In this document: one piece after another, positions 11,761-14,700 of the stretch
Layout: each line of letters starts with the position of its first letter
Position numbering within the stretch: the stretch's first letter is position 1
From: Escherichia coli
GTDB taxonomy: Bacteria > Pseudomonadota > Gammaproteobacteria > Enterobacterales > Enterobacteriaceae
Reading direction: 5' to 3' (one strand)
NCBI RefSeq assembly: GCF_013122565.1
Contig: NZ_CP053258.1
Length of the DNA: 64,000 bases
Made by a program: the position numbers

Positions 11761-14700
11761 TGATGGGCGGTATTCTGAAACGGCGATTGTCGTGAGAACA
11801 GAATGGTTGCACCAGAATACAGATATAAAAAAACCGACATGACAGTCGGTTTTTTTATTTTTTCCGCCCAAGACTTGGTGGTTCTGGGCAGAAATGAAAC
11901 AGTCCTCATCTAGCAAGTGAATTATAAGTCAGGATGCCTACATATTCAAACAGCTATGTTGGCGATACAATCCCGACGCTAGTAGTGATACTGCCTCAAG
12001 GGATTACCGCAGTGCGGAAAAGTACTTTTAAGTCCTGGTCAGGATACAGGTGGTGCTGATTCTGGTGCTCTAATTTGGAGAGAGGCAGTCCTCATCTAGC
12101 ACATGAAGAAAATCATAGTTACAGGCAATGTAAGGGTAAGCTGTGATTGTCTTTCTCCCTTAAGGGAGCAACGGATGAAAACTTTTCTCGATAAAGTTCT
12201 CATCGTTCTTAAGGCGCTAATCGCGCTGCTGGAACTGATCCGTCAGTTTATTGAATAACTGAGGAAACGTAGCTAAGGCCGAAGGTTTACCACCTTCGGC
12301 CTTTAAAAAACCGACATGACAGTTGGTTTCATATTTATTGCCAAAATGCACACTGTTCATGCCAGATGCGGCGTAAACGCCTTATCTGGCCTACACAATC
12401 TTGCAAAATCAATATATTGCACGATCTTCGTAGACCAGATAAGCGTAGCGCATCAGGCAATCTAACGCCTGTCATCACCCCGCAAACTGCCTGAACAGCG
12501 CCTTACCCTTAACCAGTCGCGCACCCAGCCAGCCGCCGCAAAGCGACAGCAGCAGCGCTCCGCTGCACGGCAGAACAATCCACAATCGCCAGTCTGGCTC
12601 CCACGGGAAATCAAACACTTTCGCCTGCAACACTGCCAGCGCCGTTTCCGCACCAATTGCGGCCACCAGGCCAGAAACAAACCCAAGCATGGCGAACTCA
12701 CACCACAATGTCGTGCGCAGCAGCTTTTTCCCCGCACCGAGTGTGCGCCACACCACCAGCTCCTGATGACGCTGACGCATTCCCACCTGCACCTGTGCCA
12801 GCAACAGCAACATACCGCAGGCGGTGACCAGCACCACCATCACCTCCAGCGCCCGACTTACCTGCTCCAGCACCTGACCGACCTGTTTTAAAATCGCGCC
12901 AATGTCTAACAGGCTAATGGTCGGGAACTGGCGGTTGAGTTGCGTCAACATGCCGTTGCCATTCTCCCAGCGGAAACTGGTAAGCCAGCTCTGCGGTTGC
13001 CCGTCTAATGCCCCTTCAGGGAAAATAAAATAGAAATTAGGCCGCAGACTTTCCCAGTCCACTTTGCGCAGGCTGGTCACTTTAGCGCGGAACTCCTGGG
13101 TATCGCCCATAAAAGTCACGGTATCACCGAGGGCAACGTTTAAGCGTTTCGCCAGCCCCTCTTCCATCGACACTTCATCGGCTTTTGGCGGCCAGTTACC
13201 GGCGACAATCGGATTATGATCGGGCCGCGTATTTTGCCAGGTAAGATTGAGTTCGCGGTTAAGCGCCTCATCTTCATTACCTTCTGTCGGCTTATCGTTA
13301 ATCGCCGTCAGCCGCGCCCGCACCACCGGATAAAACGATTCCGGGACTATCTGATGTTCCGCGAGGAACGCTTTTAGCGGTGCTACCTGTTCTGTGGCGA
13401 TGTTAATTAAAAAGTAGTTCGGGCTTTCTGGAGGTAGCTGCTGCTGCCAGCGGTCGAGCAGATCGCCACGCAACACCAGCAGCAGTGCCAGCAGCATAAA
13501 GGAGAGCGAAAATGCCGAAAGCTGGCTTAACGTTGACCACGGCTGACGTAACAGGCGGCTAACCGCCAGGCGCAGAGGCAGCGATTTCAGCGTCATGCGG
13601 CGAAGTACATTCAGCAGCATCCAGCCCAGCACACCGCACAGCAAAGCCAGTACTACCGCGCCCGCCAGCACCGCCCAAAGCAGCATGCTGCCACCCATTA
13701 ATCCGGCGAGCAGCAGCACAACCACCACACTGACAATCGGCAGATAAAACTTCAGCGGCCAGACGTTCGCTACCACATCATTACGCAATACGCGTAAAGG
13801 CTGCGTTGCCAGCAACAAGCGGTACGGTCGTAGCCCCACCAGCAGCGAGATGACTGTCATGGTGCCCAGCGCCCATAGCCACGGCCAGAGGCTGGCAGGC
13901 GGTAGTGCAGCAGGTAGAACGGGCTTGAGCAGCACCATCAACACGTTTTCGAATAACAGGCCTATCGCCCCACCGGTAACGGCTGAAAGCGACAGCACCA
14001 TCAACCACTGACCGACGATTAGCTTACGCAGCTGCACTCGCCCAGCCCCCAGCGTTTTGAGGATCGCCACCAGATCGTAGCGACTGCGACAGTAATGATT
14101 CATCGCCACCGCCACCGCTGCCACTGCCAGCAGCAAGGTTAGAAGCGCAGAAAGCAGCAGGAACTGTTGCGAGCGTTCCATCGATCGCCCCAGCGCGCCT
14201 TCATCCTGTTCCAGACCATACCAGCGTTGTTCGGGTTTAAGCTGAGGTAACAACCATTTCTCATAGCCGTCGAGCTGGTTCTCGTTGCCGCCGAATTTAT
14301 AGCGCCAGGTGACCCGACTCCCCGGCTGCACGGCTCCGGTTTTATCGACATCCGCCAGATTCATCATCAGACGCGGAGCCATCTGGAAGGGGTTAAAACC
14401 GGAATCCGGTTCCTGAATCACTTCTCCGGCAATCCGCAAGGTGGCATCGCCCACGTCAATGGTGTCGCCCGTTTTCAGGTTAAGCAGTGCCATCAGGCGT
14501 GGGGCCAGCAATACGCTGCCCGTCTGTGGTTTCAGGCCGGGGGGATTGGTTTGCAGATCGCCATACATCGGGTAGATATCATCCACCGCTTTGACATTCG
14601 CCAGCTGCGGTGTGTCGCCTGCAAATGTCATGGTGGCGAAAGTCAGCTGCTTGCCGACTTTCAGGCCGCGCTTTTGCGCTTCCTCCAGCCACGCTTGCGG

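Follow-up and report, generated by a model that had tools for sequence, protein, structure and literature searches.

The interval between selU/mnmH and ybbP in Escherichia coli raises the question of whether it holds a working type I toxin-antitoxin module, and to which family such a module belongs. An earlier note proposed a candidate module at this site with four parts: a membrane toxin, a hairpin hiding its ribosome binding site (RBS), a target repeat in the 5' UTR, and a copy of that repeat in a divergent antisense RNA. It named tisB/istR, dinQ/agrB and zorO/orzO as models. In this study, we analysed the locus within a 64-kb window, the whole stretch of 64,000 nucleotides. As shown in Table 1, the two flanking genes were where they had been placed, and all four proposed parts were upheld. 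Of the three models, homology was detected to dinQ/agrB and none to tisB/istR or zorO/orzO. The type I reading was supported by a DinQ profile match, a full-length Rfam AgrB match, an sRNA promoter, and DNA collinear with K-12 dinQ-agrAB. The locus is homologous to dinQ/agrB and more than an analogue of it. Very probably, the interval 11825-12342 is an accessory but complete paralogue of dinQ/agrB, the E. coli type I toxin-antitoxin system, and belongs with the published dinQ-like (dql) group. Public genomes already carry an annotation of the toxin gene, so the module was correctly recognised but is not new, and the dinQ-like family was published in 2016. PADLOC gave no match.

Table 1. Features of the selU-ybbP interval (positions in the window)
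Feature	Position	Strand	Details
selU/mnmH	10669-11763	+	Left flank of the module
Bidirectional rho-independent terminator hairpin	11825-11858		Arms of 14 bp between an A-run and a T-run; called on both strands by the scan
AgrB-family antisense sRNA, predicted antitoxin	11825-11914	-	About 85-90 nt; Rfam RF02891
sRNA sigma-70 promoter	11921-11949	-	TTGAAT (11949-11944), 17-nt spacer, TATAAT (11926-11921); start site ~11914
Inferred toxin promoter	11943-11971	+	-35 TATTCA (11943-11948, weak), -10 TACAAT (11966-11971); homology only
Predicted full-length toxin mRNA	11978-12304	+	About 327 nt; starts at G11978, opposite the mapped +1 of K-12 dinQ in the alignment
5' lock elements of the mRNA	11978-11997	+	Both helices are present in the minimum-free-energy (MFE) structure of the +1 transcript
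Predicted sRNA target in the 5' UTR	12069-12101	+	Repeat copy 2 plus extension; contains element 2 (GGAGAGAGG, 12077-12085)
Element 3 and element 4	12150-12168	+	Element 3, UCUUUCUCC (12150-12158, anti-SD); element 4 with the SD, GGGAG (12164-12168)
Toxin ORF, 27 aa	ATG 12175 to TAA 12256-12258	+	DinQ-family single-helix membrane peptide; NF041472 toxin_DinQ
Toxin mRNA terminator hairpin	12275-12303	+	12-bp GC-rich stem, 5-nt loop, UUU tail; inverted repeat
Degenerate second copy of the 3' end of the sRNA with its terminator	12305-12342		38 nt, 82% identical to 11828-11865
ybbP	12475-14889	-	Right flank of the module

The toxin ORF was read directly from the sequence exactly where it had been proposed. 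The 27-aa peptide, MKTFLDKVLIVLKALIALLELIRQFIE, has a GRAVY of 1.23 and seven charged residues. It matched NCBIfam NF041472 toxin_DinQ with 40.9 bits (cut-off 30, E=1.8e-10), and BLASTP against K-12 DinQ gave 15/19 identities (79%) over a 19-residue core. The core motif DK.(I/L)IVL.ALIALLELIR is common to both peptides, but the C-terminus is QFIE in the window and FLLQLLN in K-12 DinQ, and the start codon is ATG in the window and GTG in K-12 dinQ. The NCBIfam TisB and ZorO models did not match the peptide at E<=10; only the DinQ and DqlB models hit. Protein homologues were sought with a 51-aa in-frame extension of the peptide as the query. A Pfam-A scan of this 51-aa ORF found no match, although precomputed tables give PF28061 DinQ for the same proteins, covering the relatives and near-identical database entries of the window peptide. 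We take this null result to reflect a limit of the library version or of the peptide length, and not to argue against DinQ membership.

The 51-aa ORF starts at an in-frame upstream ATG at 12103, which was absent from the earlier note. We give almost no credence to the idea that it, and not the 27-aa peptide, is the real product. The frame is open from 12103, versions of 46-59 aa from several species are present in databases, and a frame of 49 aa occurs in K-12 dinQ as well (PMC3567139). However, no suitably spaced Shine-Dalgarno (SD) sequence precedes ATG 12103: the closest GGAG-like stretch ends 17 nt upstream of it. The length and start of the extension vary among relatives, some of which have just MEKR or a nearby stop, whereas the 27-aa start (ATG or GTG) is kept 5-8 nt after an SD in every locus. 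The conserved 'VTGNVRV' of the extension coincides with an invariant RNA segment, ACAGGCA, and in dinQ activity was demonstrated solely for the 27-aa peptide V (PMC5066626, PMC3567139).

We then placed the predicted antitoxin RNA. Rfam RF02891 (AgrB) matched the minus strand at 11825-11913 along its entire model (positions 1-84 of 84), with E=1.4e-8 and a score of 56.5 bits, above the gathering score of 40. This sRNA aligns with K-12 agrA/agrB, and its predicted fold has three hairpins, terminator included. Its promoter agrees with the consensus at 10/12 positions, was the only promoter-like site in a consensus scan of 11700-12500, and lies where the 5' end of the Rfam match (~11913-11914) predicts. 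At its 5' end, ~20 nt of the sRNA read as the reverse complement of repeat copy 1. The 3' stem-loop of the match is the hairpin at 11825-11858, also detected as an inverted repeat, which terminates selU/mnmH on the plus strand and the sRNA on the minus strand. The suggestion of a divergent antisense RNA carrying a repeat copy thus stood, but the position given for it did not: the RNA spans ~11829-11914 and ends at the selU terminator hairpin, instead of lying at 11890-11960. It does not overlap the predicted toxin mRNA, the gap to its start at 11978 being ~64 nt. An AgrB-family sRNA was found on the opposite strand ~250-350 nt upstream of the toxin ORF in 12/12 related loci. In the ATCC 8739 record that we inspected, PGAP annotates "dinQ" at the same position, and the AgrB-like sRNA has no annotation.

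The repeat would connect this RNA to the toxin mRNA. CAGTCCTCATCTAGCA occurs at 11900-11915 and 12086-12101, the coordinates first proposed; these are the sole two copies in the window even at <=2 mismatches, against 0.01 expected, so chance does not account for the pair. When extended, the repeat covers 22 nt with 91% identity. Copy 1 lies at the 5' end of the AgrB match and copy 2 in the 5' UTR, which bears out the proposal that one copy is the target and the other part of the antisense RNA. Aligned without gaps to 12069-12099, nucleotides 1-31 of the sRNA can pair at 26/31 positions, 21 of them Watson-Crick and 5 G-U, and 18 of these pairs follow one another without a break; the T1TAdb criterion for sRNA-target complementarity is at least 15 nt, with 31 nt in dinQ. 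The target corresponds to dinQ G88-A119, and in both loci 75 nt separate it from the start codon downstream. The pairing is weaker than that of AgrB with dinQ (30/31), and the recognition sequence is CAGUCCUCAUCUAGC in the window and GAGUUCUUAUCUAAC in K-12. This sequence varies between loci but matches within each. In a 13x13 sRNA/mRNA matrix the cognate duplex was the strongest in most rows, including that of the window (-46.7 kcal/mol vs -42.4 for the best non-cognate duplex). The energy of the window duplex is near that of AgrA-dinQ (-44.4 kcal/mol), and AgrA is reported as not acting as an antitoxin; the 5' helix, however, runs for 18 pairs in the window vs 9 for AgrA. A duplex of the whole sRNA with the whole UTR (-72.9 kcal/mol) was set aside as a measure of pairing, since the origin of sRNA and UTR by duplication shows in this value and intramolecular structure is ignored; the first 31-36 nt were used instead.

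Four elements of the 5' UTR are predicted to be able to form mutually exclusive 1:2, 2:3 and 3:4 pairings, the same four-element switch as in K-12 dinQ. The palindrome that had been noted over the SD, CTCCCTTAAGGGAG, occupies 12155-12168 as stated. The window has no other copy, shuffles gave an expectation of 0, and the SD precedes ATG 12175 by 6 nt. As a perfect palindrome is unable to pair fully, the realistic SD hairpin has 5 bp (CUCCC/GGGAG) and a UUAA loop. This hairpin is supported by a two-sided change relative to the family, which has CUCCAU/AUGGAG. Pairing 3:4 would close the SD hairpin and pairing 2:3 would open it. The 5' lock would consist of an a/a' helix, GCUAG (11978-11982) with CUAGC (12096-12100), and an equivalent of the 1:2 duplex, ACUGCCUC (11990-11997) with GAGGCAGU (12082-12089). 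Across 11 loci, the a/a' helix was 100% paired (two pairs changed on both sides), the 1:2 helix 72% (five pairs) and the 2:3 helix 94%. At column pair 240/315 of the 2:3 helix, eight loci have UA, the window has AU, one locus CG and one UG. The covariation observed in the switch helices exceeded all 500 shuffles and all slid controls, over which the tested structure was favoured by being derived from the window sequence. Folding of the +1 transcript gave the lock helices in the MFE structure. The mean probability of the SD being unpaired was 0.01 in the +1 transcript, ~0.15 after 5' truncation and ~0.09 with the target blocked, so the direction of the switch was right and the effect small. The signal in the K-12 dinQ positive control, from 0.12 to 0.19, was also small, and folding is therefore weak evidence for the switch.

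The ends of the toxin mRNA were assigned by comparison with relatives. In the 11-locus alignment, TACAAT falls in the column of the conserved GTATAAT and of K-12 TATGAT, and the toxin -35 overlaps the sRNA -35 back to back. A pairwise alignment with K-12 had put the -10 at AGTGAT/GATACT, which was replaced by TACAAT on the basis of the 11-locus alignment. The consensus scan of 11700-12500 found no plus-strand promoter, the toxin -35 being poor, so that the promoter is placed by alignment alone. The K-12 dinQ +1 was located via the nucleotide numbering in PMC5066626, and the corresponding start gives a predicted 5' UTR of ~197 nt. The full-length K-12 dinQ mRNA is ~330 nt (PMC3567139). A hairpin terminator follows the ORF as expected, slightly displaced from the 12270-12300 first proposed: its arms, 12275-12286 and 12292-12303, are 100% complementary. 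The helix is conserved, with seven pairs changed on both sides across loci. The consensus terminator scan did not call it because the U-tract is short (UUU only); the same short U tail is found in K-12 dinQ and other relatives.

The name given to the gene implies control by DNA damage. It is very improbable that the ORF is an SOS-inducible dinQ orthologue switched on by LexA cleavage after DNA damage, although PGAP names it 'damage-inducible type I toxin DinQ' in >1100 genomes and the peptide scores above the NCBIfam 'equivalog' cut-off for DinQ. No LexA box of the form CTG-N10-CAG was found on either strand of 11860-12180, and the best candidate has a mismatch in a core triplet and lies over the sRNA -35. 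K-12 dinQ, in contrast, carries the LexA operator TACTGTATGATTATCCAGTT over its -10, so the missing box, already remarked on from the raw sequence, is a real difference from canonical dinQ. Moreover, the canonical dinQ-agrAB between arsR and gor is present separately in 5422/5426 complete E. coli genomes, and Escherichia sp. E1V33 carries both it and a window-type module (loci L039 and L040). The window peptide also falls in a distinct DinQ subgroup with the C-terminus ...ELIRQFI[DE], which occurs on ICEs, plasmids and one Serratia chromosome as well.

The closest known systems are K-12 dinQ-agrAB at arsR-gor (Weel-Sneve 2013, Kristiansen 2016) and the dql genes. With K-12 dinQ-agrAB, the DNA is collinear over the whole ~480-bp module: sRNA terminator, sRNA body, divergent promoters, ~195-nt 5' UTR, SD hairpin, 27-aa ORF and terminator. 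K-12 has two sRNA genes, agrA and agrB, whereas the window has one AgrB match above threshold and the 38-nt 3' remnant. The window module is accessory, whereas canonical dinQ is core. The architecture is also that of tisB/istR-1 and zorO/orzO, two E. coli type I systems whose antisense RNAs are divergent and non-overlapping. There, a small hydrophobic toxin has a long 5' UTR, inert before processing, and the sRNA likewise pairs far upstream of the SD via a direct DNA repeat. An Rfam search nevertheless gave no IstR match, and OrzO-P, whose gathering score is 60, reached 24.1 bits in a match that was confined to the terminator and lay on the wrong strand.

The dql genes dqlA and dqlB are dinQ homologues on Enterobacteriaceae chromosomes and plasmids (Kristiansen 2016, PMC5066626). 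Common to them are the 5' UTR elements, an SD, a terminator and a sigma-70 promoter, and a single strain can harbour them together with dinQ (PMC5066626). DqlB differs from the window peptide in having 31 aa with a central RAVAALANALIA insert, where the window peptide has 27 aa and no insert, and the C-terminal ELIRQFI[DE] is the only segment common to the two. Against NF041473 DinQ_rel, the DqlB model, the window peptide scored 24.5 bits, below the cut-off of 35. DqlB is plasmid-borne, and the window module is chromosomal at a fixed syntenic site. It probably corresponds to the dqlA group; the name dqlA was not found in the literature besides PMC5066626. Relatives of the window type, on ICEs, conjugative plasmids and a Serratia chromosome, encode 27-aa peptides of the form MK[TAV][FL][LI][DE]K..IVLKAL[IV]ALLELIRQFI[DE] that are 70-90% identical. 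In each of them, an AgrB-family sRNA complementary to its cognate target is encoded upstream on the opposite strand. DNA identity with the window module is 71-77%, and most of these relatives form a longer sRNA/target helix, of up to 31/31. Because most of them adjoin conjugation genes (TraG/TrwB, TraY/TraM, DUF3487), a plasmid- or ICE-stabilising role is plausible for these relatives, but not at the selU-ybbP site.

The module was present in 1326/5426 complete E. coli genomes (24%), where PGAP annotates the ORF as "dinQ". In ~14% of carriers (about 180-190 of roughly 1320), a 108-bp deletion takes out the sRNA target, RBS and start codon and leaves the sRNA gene and its promoter. The module is therefore dispensable, given these losses of the 5' part of the toxin gene and its absence from 76% of E. 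coli. This deletion and the patchy presence, together with the weak toxin -35 and the drift in the distal half of the sRNA/target pairing (26/31 vs 30-31/31 in several relatives), are what a decaying, non-functional dinQ-like relic with an unexpressed or uncontrolled toxin would show. We regard such a relic as improbable. The ORF is intact in 1135 genomes, all regulatory elements are present and the sRNA promoter is near-consensus. The departures of the window from the family consensus are compensatory (GCUAG/CUAGC, A:U in helix 2:3, CUCCC/GGGAG). In Escherichia sp. E1V33 the module is syntenic and ~99% identical within 6.5 kb of surroundings that are 96% identical; the sole ORF difference is synonymous, so that the protein is identical in a lineage with 4% diverged flanks. 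Three states of the selU-ybbP interval are distinguished: with the rhsD island, empty, and with the module, intact or carrying the 108-bp deletion. A repeat search showed that two copies of the 3' part of the sRNA, terminator included, bracket the 477-bp module as direct repeats. The empty-site strain LR-28 has exactly one 38-nt copy, of the right-hand type. As to how direct repeats of its own terminator came to flank the module, it may be a cassette that was inserted at a terminator, or the empty site may have arisen by deletion.

By homology with dinQ, the locus is expected to be transcribed and processed, and to produce a toxic peptide and an acting antitoxin. Membrane depolarisation by DinQ is counteracted by AgrB (PMC3567139), and a four-element switch with RNase III cleavage has been described for dinQ (PMC5066626). 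DqlB/agrB of pOXA-48 was validated in 2025 with compensatory mutations, which showed sRNA-5' UTR base pairing in a plasmid addiction module (PMC12365149). DinQ (PMC3567139) and DqlB of pOXA-48 (PMC12365149) are the only precedents for toxicity and its neutralisation by the sRNA. In the proposed mechanism, a weak constitutive promoter with no LexA operator would give the ~327-nt mRNA from near 11978. In the full-length mRNA, the 5' end would pair with ~12082-12100, leaving the anti-SD (12155-12159) free to close over the SD, and there would be no translation. Removal of the lock by 5' processing would let element 2 pair with element 3, opening the SD, and the 27-aa peptide would be made, enter the inner membrane and depolarise it. 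The divergent ~85-nt AgrB-like sRNA (11914 to 11829), made from a strong promoter, would pair through its 5' ~20-31 nt with 12069-12101 and sequester element 2, so that the SD hairpin re-closes. The sRNA-mRNA duplex would probably be an RNase III substrate.

We also considered the relationship between the accessory sRNA and the core dinQ/agrAB system. Cross-talk between the two is doubtful, if suggested by sequence. Of the first 20 nt of the window sRNA, 18/20 can pair with the target in canonical dinQ, 12 of them in one run. For AgrA no target is established; its pairing with the window toxin mRNA (17/20, -40.1 kcal/mol) is comparable to that with dinQ (18/20, -44.4 kcal/mol). If cross-talk were true, the orphan sRNA in toxin-deleted carriers may be kept for regulating dinQ or another target, a reading that parallels the proposal for the orphan OrzP antitoxin in MG1655.

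The analysis of this locus indicates that a type I toxin-antitoxin module can be recognised from raw sequence alone. Since there is no LexA box, "damage-inducible" in the RefSeq name is probably wrong at the selU-ybbP site. About a quarter of E. coli strains would carry two DinQ-type toxins, which is relevant to studies of dinQ phenotypes, persistence and membrane depolarisation outside K-12. The variants that have lost the toxin and retained the sRNA offer natural material on how type I antitoxin RNAs may gain other roles.

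The 27-codon ORF that the earlier note had described between selU/mnmH and ybbP was present, with the product MKTFLDKVLIVLKALIALLELIRQFIE. This peptide scored 40.9 bits against NCBIfam NF041472 (toxin DinQ; curated cut-off 30) and fell under the cut-off of the related DqlB model (24.5 vs. 35). Of the 19 core residues, 15 were identical in K-12 DinQ, and the C-terminus of the peptide, ELIRQFIE, was similar to that of DqlB. Upstream, Rfam AgrB (RF02891) was matched over its full length at 56.5 bits (gathering score 40). The 3' end of this AgrB-like sRNA is a bidirectional terminator hairpin common to the end of selU, and its promoter, the sole consensus promoter of the area, lies exactly where the sRNA requires it (implied start ~11914). 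When aligned pairwise to the arsR-gor region of K-12, the module proved collinear with agrA-dinQ: in both, the terminator and body of the sRNA are followed by the divergent promoter region, a 5' UTR of ~195 nt, the SD hairpin, the ORF, and a terminator. The DinQ and AgrB matches, the sRNA promoter and this collinearity bear out the proposed type I toxin-antitoxin module; the observation is confirmed and its interpretation supported. These comparisons indicate true homology between this locus and dinQ/agrB, and expression, processing, toxicity, and antitoxin action would be expected here by that homology.

Coordinates of features in and around the module (window positions)
Feature	Position	Strand	Remark
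selU/mnmH	10669-11763	+	left neighbour
AgrB-like sRNA	11825-11913	-	RF02891 match
38-nt direct repeat	11828-11865 / 12305-12342		flanks whole unit
16-mer repeat	11900-11915 (copy 1) / 12086-12101		CAGTCCTCATCTAGCA
sRNA promoter	11949-11921	-	TTGAAT-17-TATAAT
Putative toxin -35	11943-11948	+	TATTCA, weak
Putative toxin -10	11966-11971	+	TACAAT
a/a' helix	11978-11982 with 12096-12100		mapped from published switch
1:2 helix	11990-11997 with 12082-12089		mapped from published switch
2:3 helix	12077-12085 with 12150-12158		mapped from published switch
Palindrome	12155-12168		CTCCCTTAAGGGAG, 14 nt
3:4 helix (SD hairpin)	12155-12159 with 12164-12168		the palindrome; mapped from published switch
27-codon ORF	12175-12258	+	toxin
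Hairpin after ORF	12275-12303		12-bp, perfect
Inverted repeat	12381-12394/12430-12443		REP/BIME-like
ybbP	12475-14889	-	right neighbour

The other features first noticed were also found. The palindrome CTCCCTTAAGGGAG occurs once in the window against a chance expectation of 0, and GGGAG lies 6 nt upstream of the ATG. The hairpin after the ORF is present, and no CTG-N10-CAG core of a LexA box was found on either strand. The 16-mer CAGTCCTCATCTAGCA extends to a 22-nt repeat at 91% and has no third copy in the 64 kb even at 2 mismatches (0.01 expected). A divergent, non-overlapping antisense pair requires such a direct DNA repeat. The two copies had been proposed as target and part of an antisense RNA, which is borne out; the sRNA carries copy 1, in reverse complement, at its 5' end. 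Two features were absent from the earlier note, namely an in-frame upstream ATG at 12103 that gives a 51-aa ORF, and the 38-nt direct repeat (82% identical). Each 38-nt repeat is a copy of the 3' end of the sRNA with its terminator, and the two enclose a 477-bp module. The empty-site strain LR-28 has exactly one terminator-repeat copy, of the right-hand type. This leaves two possible histories: insertion of the module at the terminator of selU, accompanied by a duplication, or origin of the empty site by deletion between the 38-nt repeats. REP/BIME-like palindromic units, evidenced by the inverted repeat, lie between the module and ybbP (12340-12465), where Rfam matches were sub-threshold (naRNA4, 37.7 bits vs. 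59.5; ES036, 35.5 vs. 37.6). Four related copies lie in tandem in Escherichia sp. E1V33 (L039, 12423-12761).

Nucleotides 1-31 of the sRNA formed 26 pairs with 12069-12099 (21 Watson-Crick and 5 G-U; longest unbroken run 18), and the site is 75 nt 5' of the toxin start codon, a distance identical to that in K-12. In K-12, AgrB-dinQ forms 30/31 pairs, and AgrA-dinQ forms 28/31 including G-U with a longest run of just 9; AgrA is reportedly not the effective antitoxin. An AgrB-family sRNA was found upstream on the opposite strand in 12/12 loci. Recognition sequences vary by locus, yet each fits the mRNA of its locus, and most rows of the sRNA/mRNA matrix had the cognate duplex as the strongest. 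This sRNA/mRNA co-variation is the best comparative evidence for a pairing that would be functional. The window sRNA could also pair with the canonical dinQ target (18/20 over sRNA nt 1-20, run of 12), and K-12 AgrA (764-845 of the K-12 agrA-dinQ sequence L002) with the window toxin UTR (17/20, -40.1 kcal/mol), about equal to AgrA-dinQ. Cross-talk of the window system with dinQ, AgrA, and AgrB is thus possible from these pairings.

The toxin mRNA was examined in an 11-locus alignment of the window, K-12 dinQ, two plasmid loci, and relatives on ICEs, plasmids, and a Serratia chromosome. The conserved -10 column (GTATAAT; TATGAT in K-12) aligned to TACAAT of the window, and the mapped dinQ +1, placed from the numbering of Kristiansen 2016 (PMC5066626), aligned to G11978. 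The toxin promoter is predicted by homology because the consensus promoter scan did not call it. Its putative -35 and that of the sRNA (TTGAAT) overlap back to back at 11943-11949. The TGTTCAAA motif over these shared -35s is kept in several relatives (alignment A3), which suggests that the divergent promoters may compete or be coupled. Departures of the window from the family consensus affect both sides of a helix together. The a/a' helix is GCUAG/CUAGC (consensus GUUAG/CUAAC), helix 2:3 has A:U as its fifth pair (consensus U:A; C:G in another locus), and the SD hairpin is CUCCC/GGGAG (family CUCCAU/AUGGAG). Pairing was 100% in the a/a' helix, which had two compensatory pairs, and 94% in 2:3. 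Total covariation exceeded all 500 shuffles and all slid controls, for a structure itself derived from the window sequence. Predicted folds gave P(unpaired) values for the SD of 0.01 (closed) for the full-length mRNA, ~0.15 (partly open) for 5'-truncated forms, and ~0.09 (re-closed) with the sRNA site blocked; the effect was small, and the K-12 positive control was no clearer.

The module was found in 1326 of 5426 complete E. coli genomes, chromosomal in every case. Since 5422 of the 5426 carry canonical dinQ-agrAB, the module is a second, accessory copy. The selU-ybbP interval has at least three states in E. coli: a short REP-containing spacer, this spacer with the module, and, as in K-12, a ~7.3-kb rhsD island in place of the whole interval (window 11766-12468 vs. 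4338-11630 of K-12 region L045; about 3000 of 5426 genomes). The segment with target end, SD, and first codons was found in only 1135 genomes, so that ~180-190 of roughly 1320 carriers are without it. In FDAARGOS_1288, the one such genome inspected (L004, ~1775-1800; window 12087-12204), a 108-bp deletion runs between two 10-nt near-repeats, AGTCCTCATC within the sRNA target and AGTTCTCATC at toxin codons 7-10. Lost with it are the end of the target, the SD, the start codon, and the first codons; the AgrB-like sRNA is left as an orphan with its promoter. The same deletion is presumed for the other carriers without this segment. In E1V33 the module is syntenic and ~99% identical (surrounding 6.5 kb, 96%) with a single, synonymous ORF difference, which fits either purifying selection or recent exchange. 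The whole module had a best match of 99.6% in the genome collection, and the 99-nt UTR query had no exact match among the 1135 complete genomes. The window has T at 11885 and 12129 where ATCC 8739 and E1V33 both have C. T11885 changes a G-U pair to A-U in the sRNA middle stem, and T12129 lies in the conserved UTR segment ACAGGCA(A/G)(T/C)G.

Previous reports described dinQ/agrAB, with its 27-aa peptide, membrane depolarisation, and 31-nt antisense region (Weel-Sneve 2013, PMC3567139), and the four-element switch (Kristiansen 2016, PMC5066626). In the latter, dqlA and dqlB were also defined as dql (dinQ-like) genes, which occur on chromosomes as well as plasmids of Enterobacteriaceae and in some cases alongside dinQ. 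Antisense RNAs of dql genes were predicted in T1TAdb (PMC8594479), and experimental validation followed in 2025 for DqlB/agrB of pOXA-48 (PMC12365149). The window locus thus belongs to a described family. Its toxin gene is already annotated in carrier genomes by PGAP as "dinQ: damage-inducible type I toxin DinQ", and the ATCC 8739 record, the one inspected, has no sRNA annotation. With one genome scanned per species, a pattern search gave 29 loci across Enterobacterales and a few likely plasmid or contaminant contigs. Short contigs with DinQ/DqlB-type loci that are assigned to Haemophilus sputorum (L019) and to Lachnospiraceae MAGs (L024, L043) most likely represent enterobacterial plasmids or contaminants in these non-enterobacterial assemblies. 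The peptides formed three groups: DinQ proper, the window type (27 aa; MK[TAV][FL][LI][DE]K..IVLKAL[IV]ALLELIRQFI[DE]), and DqlB (31 aa). Relatives of the window type occur on ICEs, conjugative plasmids (adjoining TraG/TrwB, TraY/TraM), and a Serratia chromosome, and distant DNA homologues on about 1700 plasmids are mostly annotated as dqlB. The module has every testable feature of the DinQ/AgrB family but neither the SOS control nor the arsR-gor location by which "dinQ proper" is defined. In contrast to canonical dinQ, it is accessory, has no LexA operator, starts with ATG, carries one sRNA gene and a 3' remnant, and differs in recognition sequence and peptide C-terminus. The "damage-inducible" name is probably unwarranted at this locus.
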